From Candidatus Moraniibacteriota bacterium (lineage in GTDB: Bacteria; Patescibacteriota; Minisyncoccia; Moranbacterales; UBA1568), in contig JAHFOO010000003.1 in the NCBI GenBank assembly GCA_023261645.1, forward strand, positions 31,951 to 95,950: a DNA stretch of 64,000 nucleotides, written 5' to 3'. Made by a program: the position numbers and the translations under genes. Numbering within the stretch: the first letter of the stretch is position 1; each line of letters begins with the position of its first letter. Shown piece after piece: positions 36,810 through 46,502 of this stretch. Under the pieces are notes generated by a model. It was not told the origin of the DNA. It saw only the letters and a list, made by a program, of their open reading frames with translations, and ran no database searches.

Positions 36810-38294
36810 CTATTCAACAAAAACTTTTTCCTTTGATTCATGATCGACCCTGATCCAGTATGCACCCGCCGCACCAAACATCGCCAAGGCCGCCGCCACT
36901 ACGAAAACATGATCATATGCAGCAACCTGTGCTTTCAAAATGATCAAATCAATCCCTGTCTTGATCACATTGGGATCCAAAGATCTGATAACGCTATTTT
37001 GAGCGATTTCTGTCACCTTGCTGTTTACGGCGTTTTGTAGAAATGTTCCAAATGCCGCAATACCGAAGGCGCCCGCGATATTACGTGCTAAAGCCAGAAC
37101 TGAAGAGGCGCTTCCTATCTCGTTTTGCGGTACAGCTGAAGCGATGATACTTGTCCGCTGAGCCATACCAAATCCCATACCGAACGCCATAATTATCAAA
37201 GGAATGATGATATCGATGGATGTCGAACGAGGATCGAGATAGGAAAACAAATAGAGCCCCACGCCAGCAACGAACGTGCTTGCCATAATAACAACGCGGG
37301 CTGACACTTTCCCTACCAGATTGCCACCGATCGGCGCAGCTAAAAGCAAAGCGAAGGCCATCGGCATAAAAAGATAGCCAGTCTGGGTCGCATCCAAACC
37401 GAGATATGTCTGAGCAAAAACCGGAATCAGAAACATCGATCCCATCATCGTCATAAATACGATAAAATTATTCAACAAAACATTTACAAAAACCGTATTC
37501 TTGAAAAAATTCAAATCAATGATAGCATCCTTATGCTCCTGTTCGATACGGATAAAAATATATCCGAATATGATAGTCACCAAATAAGCAGTCAGACTCG
37601 GAATAGAAAACCATCCCCAGCTCAGCCCCTTATCAAGAACGAGGACAAGTGAACTAAGCGCTATTCCCAAAACGATTGCCCCCCACCAATCAAAGCCGTG
37701 TTCTTTTTCCTTTTTTTTGCTTTCATGAATATAGGTCATAGCCATAAGCAGACCCACGATTCCTACTGGAAGGTTTACCAGAAAGACACTACGCCAACCG
37801 AAATTATCGATGAGCGGACCTCCTATAAGTGGCCCAAATACTGATGCCGCTGCAAAAGACGAAGACCAGATGCCCAAAGCCTGAGCTCTTTCTTTGCCTG
37901 GCTTGAAAGTGATGGCCAAGATTGCCATGGCTGTCGGGTAATCTGCTGATCCGGCAATGGCTTGGATCACTCGAAAGGCGATCATCGAGTTCAGATTCCA
38001 AGACAATCCGGCCAATATCGATCCGAAGATAAACAAAGAAAAACCGACGATATAGATTTTCTTTTGCCCATATATATCGCCAAGCTTTCCCCAAATAGGG
38101 ACAAAGATGGCATTGGCCAGGATATATGCTGTTGCGATCCAGCCAGCAGAAGAAACAGTGATTCCGAAATCACCGATAATTTTTGGGATGGCTAGATTCA
38201 CGATTGTCTGATCAAGACGCCCAAGAAAAGTTCCAACGATCACCGTAAACAATATCATCCAGCGCAAATTTTTTGGATCTTTGAATATTTTCAC
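36810..38294 (-). CDS. MFS transporter, DHA2/EmrB-like drug:H+ antiporter (14 TMS)
   Basis: A 494-aa protein. MFS signature GRLDQTIVNLAIPKI and 14 predicted transmembrane segments. Confidence 0.85.
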   Translation of the reverse strand: MKIFKDPKNLRWMILFTVIVGTFLGRLDQTIVNLAIPKIIGDFGITVSSAGWIATAYILANAIFVPIWGKLGDIYGQKKIYIVGFSLFIFGSILAGLSWNLNSMIAFRVIQAIAGSADYPTAMAILAITFKPGKERAQALGIWSSSFAAASVFGPLIGGPLIDNFGWRSVFLVNLPVGIVGLLMAMTYIHESKKKEKEHGFDWWGAIVLGIALSSLVLVLDKGLSWGWFSIPSLTAYLVTIIFGYIFIRIEQEHKDAIIDLNFFKNTVFVNVLLNNFIVFMTMMGSMFLIPVFAQTYLGLDATQTGYLFMPMAFALLLAAPIGGNLVGKVSARVVIMASTFVAGVGLYLFSYLDPRSTSIDIIIPLIIMAFGMGFGMAQRTSIIASAVPQNEIGSASSVLALARNIAGAFGIAAFGTFLQNAVNSKVTEIAQNSVIRSLDPNVIKTGIDLIILKAQVAAYDHVFVVAAALAMFGAAGAYWIRVDHESKEKVFVE

Positions 38295-38311
38295 AGAACC
38301 TGTTCCTTTTG

Positions 38312-38962
38312 TTAATTCGTATAAATGGTCACTTTTGCAGACATACCGTTCTTTAGTTCGGGATACTGCTTCACATCAAAACGGATTTTCACATCAAACT
38401 GGCGCACCTCCCGCTGATCAGAAATATTGAATACCACTCCAGATTGGCGCGAGGTCGAACTAACTTCCTCAACGATCCCGGAATATTTTTTTGAACCGAA
38501 AGCATCAACCGTAAATACCGCACTTTGCCCAATATGTATATCGCTTAAACCACTGTTCTCATCAATATGTGCTACCACGCGAAGTTGTGCTGGATTGATA
38601 ACCGTCACTATCGACTCACCAACACCGACTGTCTTGCCCACATTGTTCTGAGCGCTTATGACTAGACCAACATCTTTGGTCTTCAAAATCTGATCCGAAA
38701 CCTGCGCGACACTTGCATTGGATGAAACCAGATCACCCTCTTTGACAAATATTTTCTGAATAACTCCACCTTGTTCTGACGCAATTGTAATGCTTGGTGC
38801 TTCAATATCTGCTTTGTCGGTAACAATTTGATTTTTCGTGATTGCAAAGAAAAACAATCCCACTACCGCAATAACCGCAAGCAACACAAATCCTAGCAAC
38901 GCAGTGCTTCGCGCCGAACTTCTTTTCGAGACTTCTTGTGGCACGGACAGTTCTTGTTCCAT
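38312..38962 (-). CDS. HlyD-family secretion adaptor (short, lipoyl + beta-barrel)
   Basis: Transmembrane helix, a biotin-lipoyl-like segment (GGVIQKIFVKEGDLVSSNASVAQV) and HlyD_3-like beta strands. Confidence 0.6.
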   Translation of the reverse strand: MEQELSVPQEVSKRSSARSTALLGFVLLAVIAVVGLFFFAITKNQIVTDKADIEAPSITIASEQGGVIQKIFVKEGDLVSSNASVAQVSDQILKTKDVGLVISAQNNVGKTVGVGESIVTVINPAQLRVVAHIDENSGLSDIHIGQSAVFTVDAFGSKKYSGIVEEVSSTSRQSGVVFNISDQREVRQFDVKIRFDVKQYPELKNGMSAKVTIYTN

Positions 38963-38987
38963 ATGATTGATCTTGAAAAAATAATAA

Positions 38988-40043
38988 TTACTTCGCGATA
39001 TATTCTCCTTCAGAAAGCCCGCTAACGATCTCTACCATCCCGTCGACGCCGGTGATTCCGGTGATTATCTCTTTTTCCTGTCCTGTACCATTCTCTGAAA
39101 CAAGTACAAGTTGCTTGCCATCTCGACTGATAATCGACGTGGAAGGAACCCTGACGACATTTTCCTTTTTGCTCGTCTTAAACAAGATATTCACGGTCAT
39201 TCCTGATTTGATACGATCGTCATTTCCTGAAAATACGCATGTCACCTTATACGTAGGCACTCCATTTTTCGTCGTTTCACCAGGATCAATCGCCACTACC
39301 TGAGCCGAAAATATAGCTGAGTTGCCATAGGCATCAAACGTCACATCGGCCGTATCACCAACCTTTATTTTCGTAACATCCTGCTCAGAAACAAAAGACT
39401 GGATCTCAAAAATATCCTTGCCGGTAATAAACGTAGCCACCGGTACTCCAGGCGCCACCACATCTCCAACTTCAACGTTTTGTTTGGCAACAATCCCATC
39501 AAATGGCGCTCGAATGATTGTTTTTTGGAGCTGTGCCAGTGCATTTCTCAAACCAGCCTGAACACCAAGCAACGTCGCCTCTTGTACCACAACGCTTTTT
39601 TCCGTCACAGTCACCTGAGCTTTCTGTACTTTCTTGGCATTCGAGCTCAAGCCTTTGAGTTTCAACTTTTCCATTTTCACAGATGCATTAAGCTCATCGA
39701 GTAACAGTCGAGCGCTGGAAACGCTCGCTAGAACCTGGTCATATTGTGCTTGTACATCTGCATTTTCTGATTGAGCAATCATGGCACCGGCCTTCACAGA
39801 GTCTCCCGCTTTTGTGAAAAGTTTCGTTATGGTTGCCGGGAAAGCACTTCCAAAACCTAAATCAGCTTGCTTTTGAGATCTCACTGTACCAGAGAGGGAG
39901 ATTCCCTCGACAACGTCTCCCCGAGAAACCTGGATCATTCCAACACTCGGATGACCGGAATAGTTCAAATATATGAACGCTATCGCCAAAGCACCAATTG
40001 AGATAATAGCCATAAGCAATCTGTTCGCTATTTTCTTATTCAT
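38988..40043 (-). CDS. HlyD/EmrA-family membrane fusion protein
   Basis: Transmembrane helix, a coiled coil, lipoyl and beta-barrel domains. Lies in an operon with the MFS pump. Confidence 0.7.
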   Translation of the reverse strand: MNKKIANRLLMAIISIGALAIAFIYLNYSGHPSVGMIQVSRGDVVEGISLSGTVRSQKQADLGFGSAFPATITKLFTKAGDSVKAGAMIAQSENADVQAQYDQVLASVSSARLLLDELNASVKMEKLKLKGLSSNAKKVQKAQVTVTEKSVVVQEATLLGVQAGLRNALAQLQKTIIRAPFDGIVAKQNVEVGDVVAPGVPVATFITGKDIFEIQSFVSEQDVTKIKVGDTADVTFDAYGNSAIFSAQVVAIDPGETTKNGVPTYKVTCVFSGNDDRIKSGMTVNILFKTSKKENVVRVPSTSIISRDGKQLVLVSENGTGQEKEIITGITGVDGMVEIVSGLSEGEYIAK

Positions 40044-40066
40044 AGAATATATTCTCTTAAAATAAA

Positions 40067-40489
40067 TTACCTGGTGATATTCGTTACTTTTTCTAAAATG
40101 GCTGTCAACTGCTTCTGTTCATCGATTGTCAGCCTCCTTAAATTCTTTCGCAGTGTTTCGGCCGCATTCTGCTTATATATTTCCAAATACTCCTCACCTT
40201 TCTTCGTAATCACGATACGTACCGTTCTGCGATCTTTCTCATCTGCTTGCCTCTCTACCAGCCGTGCCCTAACAATCGTGTTAACGAGTGAAGTTGCTGA
40301 GGGCGGAGTAATTCCCAATAAACCGGCAATCTCTCTCATAAATGGTTTTTTCTTCTTCACATATGCGAGTGTCACCATATGCAGATAAGAACACGCTTTC
40401 TCGCTCTTTTGCTCCCGTTGCTCGTGCAAGAGTTTGTTGGTCTCAAAAATAAGTCGTATGATACGATCAATAGAATTTTCCATATTCAT
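40067..40489 (-). CDS. MarR-family transcriptional regulator
   Basis: A 140-aa protein with winged helix MREIAGLLGITPPSATSLVNTIVRARLVERQADEKDRRTVRIVITKKG. Confidence 0.8.
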   Translation of the reverse strand: MNMENSIDRIIRLIFETNKLLHEQREQKSEKACSYLHMVTLAYVKKKKPFMREIAGLLGITPPSATSLVNTIVRARLVERQADEKDRRTVRIVITKKGEEYLEIYKQNAAETLRKNLRRLTIDEQKQLTAILEKVTNITR

Positions 40490-40812: not shown

Positions 40813-41397
40813 TTATTGAAGATAAGCTTCTTTCAATTTGTAGGCTATGTCGTGAAGTTCTTCATGCCGTTCTTTCCCGATGACGTTTTTGTCCACGTCT
40901 TCAAAGCCTTTGTCCAGTTCTTTTAATTTGCTTTCCGAAAGTGTTTTTTCCGTCATCGGGAAAAGCACTTTATTTTCACGATCTATATGCTGGTCGAGAA
41001 GTTTGATATACGCCTTTGTGTTCTCACCGAAAGCGGAAACATCGTCGCTTTCAATGGCATCGGCCATATTTTTCACGAATCCTCTGCCGATAGTGTGTTC
41101 TTCGATAAAACCATCAACGAGAGCGATTTCTTCCGGTATATTGTTTTCCCTTACGGCTGGAAAATACAAAGCCTCTTCTTTTCCATGGTGACACTTGTCC
41201 GCGAATTCCCGGATAAATGTGATGGCGAGTTGCATATGTTCTTTATTGAGAGGCTTTCCAGATTCAAGTTGCTCGCATACTTTTTCCAGAACACGAAGCA
41301 CCATTTTGATCAATCCGTGTTCTCTTTCCATATCTTTAATGGGATCTGGAAAATCGAATTCGACAGGATTCATAGAATTTATTTGACCGTATAACAA
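40813..41397 (-). CDS. Hemerythrin-like metal-binding (HHE cation-binding) domain protein
   Basis: Repeated H/E-containing helices (EHGLIKMVL, FADKCHHGKEEALYFP, EEHTIGR, HIDRENKVLFP) typical of hemerythrin domains. Confidence 0.65.
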   Translation of the reverse strand: MLYGQINSMNPVEFDFPDPIKDMEREHGLIKMVLRVLEKVCEQLESGKPLNKEHMQLAITFIREFADKCHHGKEEALYFPAVRENNIPEEIALVDGFIEEHTIGRGFVKNMADAIESDDVSAFGENTKAYIKLLDQHIDRENKVLFPMTEKTLSESKLKELDKGFEDVDKNVIGKERHEELHDIAYKLKEAYLQ

Positions 41398-41486
41398 TTA
41401 ACAATACTCATTATAGCACAAAAAAACTCCCCCGACTCCACAACAAGATCAGATGCCCTTACAAAAAGAGTGATTTTCACTTGTTA

Positions 41487-41508
41487 CTCTGGCGGCAGGA
41501 TTCGAACC
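41487..41508. repeat. 22-bp direct repeat (distal copy) identical to the 3' end of tRNA-Asn; putative att site of a degraded integrated islet
   Basis: CTCTGGCGGCAGGATTCGAACC matches 43637..43658 exactly. Those bases are tRNA-Asn T-loop through discriminator on the minus strand. Confidence 0.6.
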
Positions 41509-41729
41509 GCCTCAAAAAGTCCGGAAACACCCCTTCCGATTGGTTTCCATCCTAGCTTACATCTCGGATCCTGCGAAGTAGCCTTTTGTTGACTTCGTGG
41601 CTTAATATTGATATATTGGCTTGATCTCAAAATACCGAGATCGTATAGCAGTTGTTTTACAATCCCATCAACCTTTGAGCCACACAACCTGCCTTTGGGC
41701 AGGCCGATGCTCAACAAAGGAGATTCATC

Positions 41730-43070
41730 ATGGAAACACCAAGCGTTTTGATTCGTGACGCACAAGCAGACGATTTCGAGTGGGTCGCCGAACTCATGCA
41801 TAACGCCCTTGAATCGTACTACGGGGGCGATCACCGCGCACATGCGAGACGTATCTTCGATGCGCATATCGCTGGCGGTCACGATCATATCGGATTTTTC
41901 TCGTTCGAACAGCACATGTCCATCCTTGAGGTGGACGGTGTCCGAGCAGGAATCATCCATGTGGTCGGTAAACGTCAGTCGACGTACAAGATCAGCCCGC
42001 TTATCCTTGCGCCAGAATATCAGAGCAAGGGCGGATTCGGAACGATCCTTCTCGACTATGCGGAAGGCTATGCGCGCAAACACGAGGCACGGCAGCTCTA
42101 CTGCACGGTCGCGGAAAAGAACGTGTCCGCCATGCAGTTCTTTCTTCGGAAAGGATTCATCCGCGCAGGGAGCTCAGACAGTCACTACAAGACCGGCGTC
42201 ACGGAAACGATGCTCTATAAGCCTCTTTACGAGACAAGCCTGATCACATCGCTGGATCAATTGCATGTGTCGGTCTTACCGCTTGATGAAGTGGACTCCG
42301 AAGTGAAAGCTGAAGTGGCACGACTTTTGCTCGAAACGCTGCCAAACTCATTCGAGGGTATCACTCCCGAATGGATTTCGGCGCTTTTCGACGGATACGC
42401 GAGAAGGAATAGCGCCGACATCAATGCCAAGTACAAGCTGATTTTTGTCGCTTTCGACAGCACTGGGCAAGTAATCGGCGTGGCGGGAGCGACTCCCAAG
42501 AAAGGGAGTCCGATAAAAATCATGCCCTTCATCGCGAAAAGTAACATCGCGTTCGAAGCACTTCTGATCGACATTCCACATCAGCTGGTTCTGTACGGCC
42601 ACAAACTGTACGTCCACATCAACCCGACCGCCGATGAGGTGGTCTCGCTCCAGCGTCTCGGATGGAGGCTTGACTCGGCCTTGCCAAACGCTTACCGTCA
42701 GAACATCGTTACCCAGCAATGGAGTCTCAACATTGGAGAAACACTCATGCGAACCATGCGAATCAAACAACGGTTTTTCGATCTCATCAAGTCTGGAAAG
42801 AAGCCGCTCGAAGTCCGTGTCGGTTACGATTCGATCAAGCGGATCAGAGCCGGCGAGCAGGTCAATCTCGAGACTCACACATCGAGACTCACCGTCAGGA
42901 TCGCCGCCGTCCGGAACTACGGTAGTTTCGAAGCGATGCTCAAGAAGGAGTCCTTCGGGAAGATTGCGCCGGACGTTTCGTCGGAAGCAGAACTCCTTGA
43001 CCTGCTCAAGCAAATCTATCCGCCAAACAAGGAGGCGCTCGGGGTCATAGTGTTTGAGCTCACAAAGTAG
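41730..43070 (+). CDS. Tandem GNAT acetyltransferase - ASCH domain fusion protein
   Basis: N-terminal GNAT motif A (ISPLILAPEYQSKGGFGTILLDYAEGYARK). A second GNAT-like domain lies mid-protein. The C-terminal 105 aa form an ASCH-type fold (MRIKQRFFDLIKSGKKPLEVRVGYDSIKRIRAGEQVNLE...). The gene is much more GC-rich (about 54%) than its neighbours. Confidence 0.6.
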   Translation: METPSVLIRDAQADDFEWVAELMHNALESYYGGDHRAHARRIFDAHIAGGHDHIGFFSFEQHMSILEVDGVRAGIIHVVGKRQSTYKISPLILAPEYQSKGGFGTILLDYAEGYARKHEARQLYCTVAEKNVSAMQFFLRKGFIRAGSSDSHYKTGVTETMLYKPLYETSLITSLDQLHVSVLPLDEVDSEVKAEVARLLLETLPNSFEGITPEWISALFDGYARRNSADINAKYKLIFVAFDSTGQVIGVAGATPKKGSPIKIMPFIAKSNIAFEALLIDIPHQLVLYGHKLYVHINPTADEVVSLQRLGWRLDSALPNAYRQNIVTQQWSLNIGETLMRTMRIKQRFFDLIKSGKKPLEVRVGYDSIKRIRAGEQVNLETHTSRLTVRIAAVRNYGSFEAMLKKESFGKIAPDVSSEAELLDLLKQIYPPNKEALGVIVFELTK

Positions 43071-43083
43071 CCACAAACCAAAA

Positions 43084-43119
43084 GCCCGGACACATAATAT
43101 GGTCCGGGCCTCTTTTTTT
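43084..43119. terminator. Rho-independent terminator
   Basis: GCCCGGAC...GTCCGGGC 8-bp stem followed by CTCTTTTTTT. A-rich on the other side, so bidirectional. Confidence 0.55.
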
Positions 43120-43459
43120 ATCTTTGAAGTTCGATTCGTATCCCGACTACCCCATACTTTTGCTGCTCTTCCTTCGGATAGAATCGGCTGATTTCTTCAA
43201 ACAAAGCTTCCTTGGAATCTCCGCCAAAATATTCCGGCGGAAAATCCGAGAAGAGATTTTCGAATGAATCATACCGATACAATGCCTTTACTTTTGTCTT
43301 TACTTTTTCCCTAAGATTGTCATTCTGTGAAAACTCGATTTCGTCACCAATATTGATCAATTGACGTTTTTCATCAAAAAGTCGAGATTCGATTATTTTC
43401 TTCCCATTTGCTATTTTCTCAAACGGCTCCTTGGCAAGTTTCATCTGATGAACATTCAT
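43118..43459 (-). CDS. ASCH-domain protein
   Basis: MKLAKEPFEKIANGKKIIESRLFDEKRQLINIGDEIEF fits the ASCH (ASC-1 homology, PUA-like) N-terminal consensus. It is paralogous in fold to the C-terminus of 41730..43070. Confidence 0.55.
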   Translation of the reverse strand: MNVHQMKLAKEPFEKIANGKKIIESRLFDEKRQLINIGDEIEFSQNDNLREKVKTKVKALYRYDSFENLFSDFPPEYFGGDSKEALFEEISRFYPKEEQQKYGVVGIRIELQR

Positions 43460-43674
43460 ACAAAGACATTTATAGGTTAATAATTGAGTCTCTCAGGTTC
43501 AAATCCGGTTGCTGGCCTGGAATGTAAAACCTATATAAGAGGAAAGAAAAATCGCCACTTTCCGTGACGATTCTCTCTTTCTCTCTGGACTTTCCCCACG
43601 GATAGGAACCGGTCACTTGAGAAATACTGATGTTGGCTCTGGCGGCAGGATTCGAACCTGCGACCAAGTGATTA

Positions 43675-44222
43675 CATTTCCCTCTTTGTTTCCAAAAAGA
43701 ATGGACTATATCATCTCCATCGCACGAAGCATTAGGAGTGAGGGGCTTCCCCTTCTATTCATCAGGGTACTCTCTCGCGAGATAGTCTCTGAACCTTCCT
43801 ACTCCTCTAGTAGGCTTGGCTGCTGATTACCATAATCGTGCTGAACAATCGTAGGCTTCCAGCAATTCACCTCATTCTTCACTTCTCGATTTCTCGAGAA
43901 GGCTGCGTAATTTGGAATGTTCTTCTCTGTGACAATTCGCACATATCAGAATACACTTATCTATTTCCTTCTGAACCCTTTCCCAGCTTCGGGTGAGTCC
44001 ATCTTGAGAGATCCCGAAATCCTTTCCGCCGAGAGCGTGATGGAATTCGAGTGCATCTTGACACTGCTTGTAACCACACAAAGAACATTCTCCGCCTTTA
44101 TACATAATCGCTTTTTGACGAATAGCCTTTCGGCGTTTCGCAACAGCGCGTTTTATGTACTCTCGGCGATCAGCATAGGATCTTTTTTCTGGCATATAGT
44201 GTCATATACCATAAATGTTTTC
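43675..44222 (-). ncRNA. Group I self-splicing intron (IC3-like) inserted between anticodon positions 35/36 of tRNA-Asn
   Basis: Minus-strand sequence after the HNH ORF stop contains the four group I core elements. P-like is AATTGCTGGAAG. Q-like is AATCAGCAGCC. R is the exact GTTCAGAGACTA. S-like is GATATAGTCC. The intron starts with G after an exon U and ends in G. Confidence 0.7.
43872..44195 (-). CDS. HNH homing endonuclease encoded within the group I intron
   Basis: CSLCGYKQCQDALEFHHALGGKD...ICANCHREEH is the classic HNH motif with two Cys pairs and HH. The ORF begins 27 nt into the intron and ends immediately before the P element. Confidence 0.8.
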   Translation of the reverse strand: MPEKRSYADRREYIKRAVAKRRKAIRQKAIMYKGGECSLCGYKQCQDALEFHHALGGKDFGISQDGLTRSWERVQKEIDKCILICANCHREEHSKLRSLLEKSRSEE

Positions 44223-44361
44223 ACAGTCACCTGCTCTACCGCTGAGCTACGCCAGAACGTGTTGCCTCTTATAGGCAATGTAACTATTCTAAAGCAAAAA
44301 AAAGAAAAAGGCAACTATACTTGATAATTGCCTCAAAAAAACATTTTATACCGCTGGTATA

Positions 44362-45083: not shown

Positions 45084-46502
45084 CTAATAGTCTCTAAGTT
45101 TCCGAATATCCGCGTGCTCACGGATCTTTTCGAGAGCCTTGGCTTCAATCTGGCGGATACGTTCACGCGTCACACCGAATTCCTGCCCCACCTCTTCGAG
45201 AGTATGTGTCACGCCGTCTTCCAATCCGAAACGGATACGGAGAATTTTCTGTTCTCGCGGAGTGAGTTCGTCCAAAATATCAGAAATATGCGATTTCAAA
45301 AGTTTCCGTGAAGCAGATTGATTTGGCATCACTGTTTCGGTATCTTCGATGAAGTCCCCGAGCACACTATCGTCTTCATTATCACCGACGGATGTTTCGA
45401 GAGAAACAGTTTCTTGTGAAATTTTCTGGATGTGGCGAATCTTCTCGACTTCGATGTTCATCTCCGCGGCGATTTCCTCTGCCAATGGTTCGCGTCCGAG
45501 TTCCTGTACCAAACGACGGGTCACCTGGGCGTATTTGTTGATCGTTTCCACCATATGCACCGGGATACGGATCGTACGCGATTGATCAGCAAGTGCTCGC
45601 GTGATAGCCTGACGGATCCACCACGTAGCATAGGTAGAAAACTTATAGCCTTTGCGATAATCAAATTTTTCGACAGCTCGGAACAGTCCTATATTGCCTT
45701 CTTGGATGAGGTCAAGAAGCGAGAGATTGTGCGATCGACCGACATACTTCTTGGCAATCGACACGACCAATCGCAAGTTGGCTTCCGTCAGACGCTGTTT
45801 CGCAGGGATATCACCTTTTTCGATCAGTTTGGCGAGACGCACTTCTTCTTCTCCGTTGAGCAGAGCCACGCGTCCGATTTCTTTCAGATACATCTGCACC
45901 AGATCGGACGTATTCTCTTCACCAAGATCCATCATCTTGTCTTTAGCTTTCGGCGCCGCTTTACTTTTTTCTTTACCCTTGTCCTTTCCTTTGCCTTTCT
46001 CTTTTTCTTTCTTACCGAAATTCGCCCCTTCCTTCTCTATATCGAGTTTCAACATTTCTTCCGAACCGATGACACGGATTCCAGATGTCTCGAGTTTTTC
46101 ATACAGACTTTCCAGATGATCCAAATCCTGTTCCACATCGGGCAAGATATGAATGATCTCATCTTCCGTCACGAAACCGCGTTGCTTCCCGCGCGCGAGC
46201 AATTCCGTCACAGCATCTTGCTGTTCTTCGATGCGTTCCCTGCTCTGAGAAGCTCTTTTCTTCACCGGCTTCACATATTTTTTATGAGCGACTTTCGATT
46301 TTTTGGAAACGATCTTTGTTTTTTTTGATGCCGTTTTTTTCGTCTGCTTTTTCTTCACGACAACCTGTTTCTTTTTCTTGCCGATCGGATGAATCTTTTT
46401 CTGCACTTTTTTATGAAGCACCTTTTTGGCAGACTTCTTCATAGGTTTCTTTCCCTTATTCAAGGGTTTTTTTGCACCTTTCTTCATAATCTTTTTTGTC
46501 AT
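45084..46502 (-). CDS. rpoD: RNA polymerase primary sigma factor RpoD (sigma-70) with lysine-rich N-terminal extension
   Basis: Regions 2-4 are conserved ([60 protein letters not shown]). The N-terminal 90 aa or so are about 45% Lys ([21 protein letters not shown]...). Confidence 0.9.

Follow-up and report, generated by a model that had tools for sequence, protein, structure and literature searches.

A stretch of 64,000 nucleotides from a Candidatus Moraniibacteriota genome (assembly GCA_023261645.1, contig JAHFOO010000003.1; hereafter the window) carries, at the 3′ end of a tRNA-Asn gene, a two-gene cassette (positions 41509-43636). One gene encodes a protein with two GNAT acetyltransferase folds fused to a C-terminal ASCH domain, and the other, on the opposite strand, encodes a small free-standing ASCH protein. 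The genomic context provides strong evidence that the tandem GNAT and the two distinct ASCH modules work together. Our best reading, to which we give slightly less than an even chance, is that the region is a self-contained module that moves horizontally and in which an RNA-directed acetyltransferase is opposed by an ASCH amidohydrolase, the pair behaving as a selfish or conflict module. The anatomy of the cassette, the linkage of its genes, its signatures of mobility and the structure of its leader RNA are demonstrated below.

One genome from each of 185,579 species was scanned with two peptide patterns as the query, which returned 42 related loci, almost all of them in genomes of the candidate phyla radiation (CPR; Patescibacteria). 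In 34 of the 42, the same small ASCH gene lies 24-88 bp downstream of the fusion gene on the opposite strand, and most of the remaining loci are contig ends or decayed copies. All three contigs that were reached from the ASCH side carry an adjoining fusion gene or a remnant of one. Together, these two observations indicate that the adjacency is not due to chance. Both families are compact: at E<1e-30, the fusion family comprises 60 clusters among 1.84 billion representatives, its members being 62-93% identical over their full length and spread over several CPR lineages, and the small-ASCH family is equally compact. Two other layouts hold the same modules. In loci L024 and L042, a different, basic ASCH protein of 117 residues is encoded directly downstream of the fusion gene on the same strand, and in P0131 and P0391 the only tandem GNATs found without an ASCH domain are flanked by two separate ASCH genes, all on one strand, in effect the fusion with its ASCH domain split off, together with the partner gene. 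The divergences of the fusion and of the ASCH protein from the window copies correlate (r=0.84). An earlier reading of the sequence (the original prediction) had proposed a functional pair, and the retention of the pair in three gene arrangements, together with this correlation, supports it. The ASCH partner recurs, and no flanking gene family is common to more than 6 of 43 loci. Truncated or frameshifted fusion genes occur in four loci (L036, L037, L038 and L045), three of which keep the ASCH gene.

The cassette also bears signatures of mobility. In the window, perfect 22-nt direct repeats, 2150 nt apart, bracket exactly the two genes, whereas the longest repeat match in 20 shuffles was 12 nt. 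The same tRNA-Asn repeat, 23 nt long, brackets a cassette that is 86% identical to the window's in L131. Bracketing direct repeats were found in the window and in L001, L010, L019, L021, L022, L026, L044 and L131; they are 17-154 nt long and around 1.9-2.3 kb apart (shuffle maxima, 10-15 nt), and correspond to the whole tRNA-Leu in L010, the 3′ end of tRNA-Gln in L021 and tRNA-Asn in L131. Eleven tRNA or transfer-messenger RNA genes lie within 450 nt of a cassette, compared with 1.2 expected (P 8e-8), and nearly all of these genes share the same strand, lie at the ASCH end and have their 3′ end towards the cassette. Copies that are 86-93% identical to the window cassette sit in different neighbourhoods. 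When genomes that have rpoD and dnaG close to the cassette are compared with one another, identity is higher for the fusion (62-66%) and for the ASCH protein (66-68%) than for RpoD (51-58%) or DnaG (38-44%). The repeats of the tRNA 3′ end and the flanks that differ even between such similar cassettes bear out the proposal of a horizontally acquired islet.

Terminal inverted repeats of a transposon were not found, no recombinase is encoded within the unit (there are only two genes between the repeats) and no recombinase family recurs in the flanks. Like genomic islands at tRNA 3′ ends, the cassette directly adjoins the 3′ end of a tRNA gene and has direct repeats of that end on both sides; by contrast, it is only 2.1 kb long, lacks an integrase and has repeats that vary in length and sequence from locus to locus. 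Because the repeats range from 17 to 154 nt and can be tRNA-derived or intergenic, insertion through a single crossover of a circle at short homology would fit better than a fixed att site. A search of metagenome contigs for a cassette-free hemerythrin / tRNA-Asn junction, using the neighbouring hemerythrin protein as the query, returned a best relative of 59% identity, without synteny or a tRNA, and revealed no empty site. The GC anomaly (0.53 versus 0.43) cannot be taken as a sign of transfer: relative to the flanks, GC content is raised in the fusion gene and lowered in the ASCH gene at almost every locus, and since this offset follows the GC content of the host from one genome to the next, it reflects protein composition. 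One contig (P0005) encodes a 750-residue serine recombinase around 3 kb upstream of the cassette.

These patterns bear on whether the cassette could be a housekeeping or adaptive RNA-modification pair, in which the fusion would be the lineage's writer of N4-acetylcytidine (ac4C) or a similar mark in tRNA or rRNA and the ASCH protein would recycle or tune it, neither being selfish nor toxic. The very high protein conservation across CPR classes (62-93% identity) would suit this, as would the presence of YqfB-clade ASCH genes in operons with TmcA in several prokaryotes (10.64898/2026.08.01.741249), and the proximity to tRNA genes could reflect co-expression. However, the two-pattern scan returned only those 42 loci, contexts vary among near-identical copies, repeats flank the unit, some copies are pseudogenized and Pfam detects no TmcA-type helicase or GNAT_acetyltr_2 domain. 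We therefore consider a housekeeping role improbable.

A conserved, structured leader RNA emerged when the sequences preceding the fusion gene were aligned. It begins with a hairpin, P1 (41623-41642), which is followed by a conserved GUUGUUUUAC (GUUCUUUAAC in most loci). Further on, an anti-Shine-Dalgarno element, CCUUUG (41672-41677), pairs with the Shine-Dalgarno sequence AAAGGAG (41716-41722); after the anti-Shine-Dalgarno element come a 4-bp helix, a conserved internal loop (YUACRCA / GUR) and the P3 hairpin (41688-41703). The stem sequence of the second hairpin varies freely across loci. A covariance model, R1, built from 30 sequences matches the window at 41630-41730 (57 bits, E 9e-10) and matches 36 related loci, four of them outside the seed, always directly before the start codon; it has no match in 368 kb of unrelated loci. 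Base pairing is maintained in 86% of alignment cells, compared with 58% in shuffled and 35-49% in slid controls, and double changes occur in 117 cells versus 44, with none of 500 shuffles reaching the score; the alignment was fitted to the model and so favours the structure, although the slid controls were run on that very alignment. The Shine-Dalgarno helix is paired in 78% of cells. In the window, the minimum-free-energy fold of the leader (-31.6 kcal/mol, z -3.2) reproduces the structure and buries the ribosome-binding site, and translation of the fusion is therefore predicted to be off by default. Rfam returned no match to 41480-41800 even at E<=10, and at the gathering score the only match in the whole window was the intron described below. 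The leader is a new covariation-supported CPR RNA with a candidate on/off logic, in a group for which few regulatory RNAs are known.

Both open reading frames (ORFs) lie where the original prediction placed them (Table 1), and the gap between them is 47 bp (43071-43117), not the 48 bp given before, with the genes convergent, tail to tail. The gap contains a GC-rich hairpin (43084-43109; -18.8 kcal/mol, z -3.45; 0 of 200 shuffles equally stable) that is preceded by an A-run and followed by a U-run, and it can therefore serve as a terminator in both directions. The promoter-like site of the fusion gene at 41589-41617 is a consensus match only; similar TTGAC..TAnnAT sites are found at the same upstream distance in other loci. 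Upstream of the free ASCH gene, no conserved promoter, leader or other element was seen across loci. Between the 3′ end of tRNA-Asn and the free ASCH gene, and close to the former, the minus strand has a terminator-like hairpin (43547-43575); given this position, the ASCH gene is probably not simply co-transcribed with tRNA-Asn.

Within the fusion protein, the first GNAT domain is well supported: Pfam places Acetyltransf_1 (PF00583) at residues 56-143 with 40.2 bits (cut-off, 20.7). Its acetyl-CoA loop (Q/R-x-x-G-x-G/A after strand 4) reads Q98...G102-x-G104, with both glycines invariant in 35 homologues and the Q shifted by one residue relative to the consensus. The second domain (GNAT2, around residues 177-336) has no sequence match in Pfam or the PDB, and its profile aligns only weakly with that of GNAT1 (hhalign P=0.03). 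Its fold emerges from structure prediction. In the AlphaFold2 model of the fusion (predicted local distance difference test (pLDDT), 85.6; predicted template-modelling score (pTM), 0.43), GNAT2 repeats the order of strands and helices of residues 6-165, and the fusion protein has the GNAT fold topology; the best Foldseek matches in the PDB are tandem-GNAT proteins (2wpw/2wpx, VipF 6wqb, 5kf1 and 3tt2) over 350-390 columns, spanning both GNAT halves. An alignment of homologues shows no acetyl-CoA loop in GNAT2 equivalent to G102/G104 of GNAT1, and because these invariant glycines are absent, GNAT2 is probably a non-catalytic GNAT fold. It is nevertheless highly conserved (for example, T255-P-K-K258 and K263), and its role is probably that of a substrate-binding or scaffold domain. 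The tandem GNAT of the original prediction thus stands as a fold, and its second copy is probably inactive. We do not regard GNAT2 as a proven duplicate of GNAT1 by sequence, given the weak profile alignment; the similar VGKRQSTYKISPLI / TPKKGSPIKIMPFI strands are suggestive only. For distant tandem-GNAT relatives no named family was found, their only matches being generic GNAT ones below threshold. High-GC homologues (P0121, P0122, P0123, P0130, P0137 and P0147) have an extra N-terminal region of 120-180 residues; one of these extensions has a weak match to the helix-turn-helix family HTH_3 (19.6 bits; cut-off, 23), and the others match nothing.

The two ASCH parts are equally clear in Pfam (PF04266; cut-off, 21.2 bits), at residues 343-444 of the fusion (39.8 bits) and 6-111 of the 113-residue protein (38.8 bits), and the predicted C-terminal ASCH domain and the free-standing one on the opposite strand are thus confirmed. 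Both contain the octapeptide G-x-K-x-x-[E/T/S]-x-R (G356/K358/E361/R363 in the fused part, G19/K21/E24/R26 in the free one). In the free protein, K21, E24 and R26 are invariant in 32 homologues; in the fused part, the Arg is invariant and the Lys and Glu are present in at least 90% of homologues. The two parts share only 19% identity and differ in charge: the fused ASCH is basic (isoelectric point (pI) 9.87; median 9.8 and range 8.9-10.3 in 35 homologues), and the free ASCH is acidic to neutral (pI 5.94, median 6.1). The AlphaFold2 model of the free protein (pLDDT 96) superimposes on PH0355 with a TM-score of 0.86-0.89, compared with 0.72-0.79 for YqfB (9kyf). Both parts match PHROG 19935, annotated as 'RNA-binding protein'. 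The original prediction had likened them to YqfB of Escherichia coli, but both have a Glu where YqfB has its Thr/Ser nucleophile (GKTR), and identity to YqfB is around 15%; both are PH0355/PF0455-like, with the Lys/Glu pair kept.

YqfB hydrolyses ac4C (PMC6972931; PDB 9kyf), and 19 ASCH proteins are reported to remove ac4C from tRNA in vitro (bioRxiv 10.64898/2026.02.27.708502). According to the same preprint, Glu-type ASCH proteins from Thermus, Archaeoglobus and Pyrococcus, which are among the 19, act on ac4C both in tRNA and as the nucleoside, the motif Lys and Glu are essential for deacetylation by Glu-type ASCH proteins, and nucleic-acid-binding ASCH proteins have a pI >9, whereas YqfB-type enzymes do not bind. 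EOLA1 deacetylates free ac4C (bioRxiv 10.64898/2026.08.01.741249).

Part of this evidence would also suit a small-molecule cassette, a mobile resistance or salvage unit. The tandem GNAT would then modify a small amine, for instance an antibiotic, a polyamine or a cytosine nucleoside, and the ASCH protein would be an amidohydrolase of N4-acyl-cytosine or nucleosides. Like the free ASCH, YqfB is acidic; it acts on free N4-acylcytosines without binding nucleic acid (PMC6972931). EOLA1 is active on free ac4C only (10.64898/2026.08.01.741249), GNAT1 has weak, sub-threshold matches to SpeG/PaiA, streptothricin and aminoglycoside acetyltransferases, and mobile, patchy cassettes are typical of resistance genes. 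Yet all matches to resistance families fall far below their cut-offs, the fused ASCH is consistently basic (pI 8.9-10.3), like nucleic-acid binders, and the occlusion of the ribosome-binding site by the leader and the degenerate GNAT2 would be left unexplained. Moreover, apart from a few other bins, all sightings of the cassette come from CPR-type genomes, and the phage search yielded none. We judge a small-molecule function unlikely, if the least unlikely of the alternatives considered.

In the reading that we favour, the 446-residue protein would be an acetyl-CoA-dependent N-acetyltransferase with GNAT1 as its catalytic domain, and the basic fused ASCH would direct it to nucleic acid, with tRNA or some other RNA as the likeliest target. 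Acetylation could fall on the N4 of cytidine, yielding ac4C, or on the alpha-amino group of an aminoacyl-tRNA, the latter being considered because the GNAT1 fold is N-alpha-acetyltransferase-like; the model does not distinguish the two. The acidic 113-residue ASCH would counteract it by taking off the acetyl group or by disposing of the acetylated nucleoside, a role suggested by its Lys/Glu pair, without which other Glu-type ASCH proteins do not hydrolyse ac4C. The leader would hide the ribosome-binding site until some signal opens it, keeping the writer off by default, and the two genes would have separate promoters and share one bidirectional terminator. The whole might then work as a writer/eraser addiction or defence module in the manner of DarT/DarG. 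The small size, patchy distribution, decaying copies and insertion beside tRNA genes favour a selfish or conflict role over a housekeeping enzyme. An acetylation/deacetylation pair, as first proposed, has a basis in the literature, in that Glu-type ASCH proteins remove ac4C in vitro. We infer the acceptor or substrate, the direction of the chemistry, the trigger and any toxicity or anti-phage role. In its most specific form, the model describes a mobile acetylation-based conflict module in which an ASCH-guided tandem GNAT acetylates tRNA (as ac4C or on the charged amino acid), an ASCH amidohydrolase erases the mark, a riboswitch-like or protein-responsive leader controls the writer and the unit spreads at tRNA 3′ ends independently of a recombinase; we think it unlikely that all of these elements hold together, although we place this above any of the alternatives.

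Several observations weigh against the favoured reading. Convergent orientation is unusual for toxin-antitoxin pairs, PADLOC returned no match to defence or toxin-antitoxin systems (best E 0.0075, which is meaningless), obvious restriction-modification neighbours occur at one locus only (L032), and in L034 the fusion has no ASCH gene within 2.3 kb. A phage origin was rejected, with no relative found in IMG/VR viral contigs. As regards the chemistry, the fused ASCH also has the Lys/Glu pair, which would put writer and eraser chemistry on one polypeptide and is unexplained by the model; where the TRIP4-like clade is reported always to have Ser/Thr, the two ASCH parts, read by eye, have K7 and R344. 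The geometry between domains in the AlphaFold2 model of the fusion is unreliable (pTM 0.43). In a PDB sequence search GNAT1 is unlike TmcA/NAT10 or the TacT/AtaT toxins, and it resembles protein N-alpha-acetyltransferases and RimI.

This last resemblance suits a protein acetyltransferase, a RimI/NAT-like enzyme acting on N termini or lysines, for which the fused ASCH would provide docking on the ribosome or a ribonucleoprotein while the free ASCH acts on RNA breakdown products. Similarity to RimI is, however, the default outcome for many GNATs, the second ASCH kept with the GNAT in three independent arrangements would be unexplained, and a mobile, decaying and sporadic cassette would be unexpected for a modifier of ribosomal proteins. 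We rate this explanation below a small-molecule function and above a housekeeping role. The neighbours in L032, a methylase and a helicase gene adjoining the cassette, are in turn what might be expected if the target were DNA, the fusion placing N4-acetyl-deoxycytidine or another acetylated base as a mark with an epigenetic or anti-restriction role, which the ASCH protein would read or erase in a restriction-modification-like system. Restriction-modification genes often come in convergent pairs. Binding to DNA has been found for some ASCH proteins (10.64898/2026.02.27.708502), and acetylation of DNA bases was proposed by Iyer et al. for GNAT-EVE+ASCH operons, as cited in PMC7641849. Against this, the cassette has no nuclease or other effector, such neighbours are confined to that one locus and ASCH activity has so far been seen only on RNA and nucleosides; of the alternatives, we find DNA-base acetylation the least probable.

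The locus belongs to a class that had been predicted, in which an acetyltransferase is fused to a PUA-like domain and has an ASCH partner. Its nearest counterparts are the (PIN-)GNAT-EVE+ASCH systems (Iyer et al. 2013; PMC7641849), which share a GNAT with a C-terminal PUA-like domain, an adjacent small ASCH gene and a sporadic, island-like distribution; GNAT-EVE fusions nearly always have an ASCH neighbour and are predicted to form toxin-antitoxin or conflict systems (Bell et al. 2020, PMC7641849). By contrast, the fused PUA-like domain of the cassette is an ASCH without an EVE match in Pfam, the GNAT is a tandem with a degenerate copy, neither a PIN domain nor an AAA_17 ATPase is present, and the partner is convergent instead of in the same operon. 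The CPR hosts also differ, and the leader RNA and the tRNA-end repeats are additional features. NAT10/Kre33/TmcA-ASCH fusions and YqfB-TmcA operons (10.64898/2026.08.01.741249) likewise link ASCH to an acetyltransferase, and the cassette has a Glu-type motif like that of the TRIP4-like clade. In that work, the fusions and operons of ASCH with NAT10-like acetyltransferases are predicted to modify cytosines, and the linkage is read as a cytosine-acetylation writer with an ac4C-binding or ac4C-hydrolysing module. Unlike TmcA/NAT10, the fusion has no helicase/ATPase, GNAT_acetyltr_2 or tRNA-binding domains (Pfam E<=1), it has no PDB match to TmcA or NAT10 (E<=0.1) and its GNAT1 is RimI/NAT-like, and its ASCH parts, PF0455/PH0355-like, appear by eye to be without the Ser/Thr universal in the TRIP4-like clade.

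With the ac4C amidohydrolases (YqfB, TthASCH, the Pyrococcus kukulkanii ASCH and EOLA1), the ASCH parts share the β-barrel and the Lys and Arg of the octapeptide, and the Glu at the Thr position is that of the Glu-type enzymes. Their closest solved relatives, however, are the Pyrococcus proteins PH0355, PF0455 and PF0469 (PDB 2z0t, 1s04 and 1xne), which have no assigned function and are archaeal, stand-alone structural-genomics proteins, with no GNAT partner seen in the evidence gathered. With DarT/DarG and with TacT/AtaT/ItaT, the likeness is one of proposed logic and not of membership: a nucleic-acid modifier set against a mark-removing enzyme on a small mobile module, and, for TacT/AtaT/ItaT, GNAT chemistry on an alpha-amine, which is compatible with the NAT-like fold of GNAT1. 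No sequence similarity to these toxins was detected, and the architecture, partner type and orientation differ. The three-domain fusion, its convergent ASCH partner and the lack of a structural match to TacT/AtaT/KacT also set the cassette apart from toxin-antitoxin pairs of a GNAT and a ribbon-helix-helix protein (TacAT, AtaRT and KacAT), whose single-domain toxin shares a transcript with its DNA-binding antitoxin.

In the literature searched, three features appear to be undescribed: the tandem-GNAT-ASCH as a CPR-wide mobile cassette, its integrase-free signature at tRNA ends and its covarying leader. The GNAT-EVE+ASCH and NAT10-ASCH links have so far been predicted from genome context, and the cassette offers a compact case, with two genes in 2.1 kb and the same three modules kept in three independent arrangements, for which the 2026 data on ac4C erasure by ASCH proteins provide a concrete assay. 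It raises the questions of whether reversible acetylation of RNA (or DNA) could be a bacterial conflict or addiction mechanism, and of what the large uncharacterized PF0455/PH0355 ASCH clade acts on. Integrase-free insertion of a cassette at tRNA ends also bears on gene movement in very small genomes.

Table 1 Cassette, integration site and tRNA-Asn gene (positions in the window)
Feature	Position	Strand	Remarks
Left direct repeat	41487..41508		22-nt displaced copy of the tRNA-Asn 3′ end (CTCTGGCGGCAGGATTCGAACC); left edge of the insert
Promoter-like site of the fusion gene	41589..41617	+	TTGACT, 17 nt, TATATT, TG extension; 10/12 consensus positions
Structured 5′ leader RNA of the fusion gene	41623..41729	+	Covariance model, covariation, fold energy
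Fusion ORF, 446 aa	41730..43070	+	ORF list
GNAT domain 1 (aa 1-168)	41730..42233	+	Predicted catalytic acetyl-CoA-dependent N-acetyltransferase
GNAT-fold domain 2 (aa 177-336)	42258..42737	+	Degenerate; AlphaFold2 topology and Foldseek
C-terminal ASCH domain (aa 340-446 and stop codon)	42747..43070	+	Basic; motif G356-K-K358-P-L-E361-V-R363
Bidirectional intrinsic terminator	43084..43109		GCCCGGAC...GUCCGGGC; A-run before, U-run after; inverted repeat I4
Free-standing ASCH protein, 113 aa	43118..43459	-	Acidic; motif G19-K-K21-I-I-E24-S-R26
Right direct repeat	43637..43658		Within the tRNA-Asn 3′ exon (T-arm and 3′ strand of the acceptor stem); right edge of the insert
tRNA-Asn(GUU), integration target	43634..44256	-	Exon 1 44256-44223; exon 2 43674-43634; split by group I intron
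Group I intron in tRNA-Asn, 548 nt	44222-43675	-	Rfam Intron_gpI, 72 bits
HNH ORF in the tRNA-Asn intron, 107 aa	43872-44195	-	phrog_2255, E 3e-26; homing-endonuclease-like

The tRNA-Asn gene beside the cassette is itself interrupted (Table 1). It is split between anticodon positions 35 and 36, and the gene is missed by ARAGORN; once joined, the exons fold as tRNA-Asn(gtt) in that program and resemble the tRNA-Asn of L005 and L029. A reading as tRNA-His was ruled out by the group I splice rule (the exon ends in U and the intron in G), the discriminator G73 and the likeness to L005 and L029. In L131 (2290-2570, minus strand), a tRNA-Asn gene is split at the same position by an intron of around 225 nt without an ORF, and is called neither by ARAGORN nor by Rfam at the gathering score. 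Because this intron at the same site is shorter and lacks an ORF, the HNH ORF of the window appears to have entered the intron later. A further fragment resembling a tRNA 3′ end is found in the opposite orientation at 43480-43535 (plus sense), in the interval that separates the free ASCH gene from tRNA-Asn. It has a T-loop motif (GGTTCAAATCC, at 43496) with an acceptor-like stretch after it and may have been left behind by an earlier integration. Such orphan T-loop fragments also flank the cassette in L018, L019, L021 and L044.

The other neighbours are varied. Adjoining the insert, 40813-41397 (minus strand) encodes a hemerythrin-domain protein with a weak match to the NCBIfam family PA2171, 'ribosome-binding persister protein' (33.7 bits, far short of the cut-off of 190). 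Beyond it, 36810-40489 (minus strand) encodes a MarR-family regulator (tool-checked), followed by two HlyD-like membrane-fusion proteins and a major facilitator superfamily transporter (by eye); the genes look like a standard efflux operon, and in other genomes they are not associated with the cassette. In L032 (1-7656), the cassette comes directly after restriction-modification-like genes, for a methylase and a large helicase-like protein (by eye). On the far side of tRNA-Asn in the window, 45084-46502 (minus strand) encodes an RpoD-like sigma factor with a Lys-rich N-terminal extension of around 90 residues, and an rpoD-dnaG pair is also found near the cassette in L019, L029, L037 and L131.

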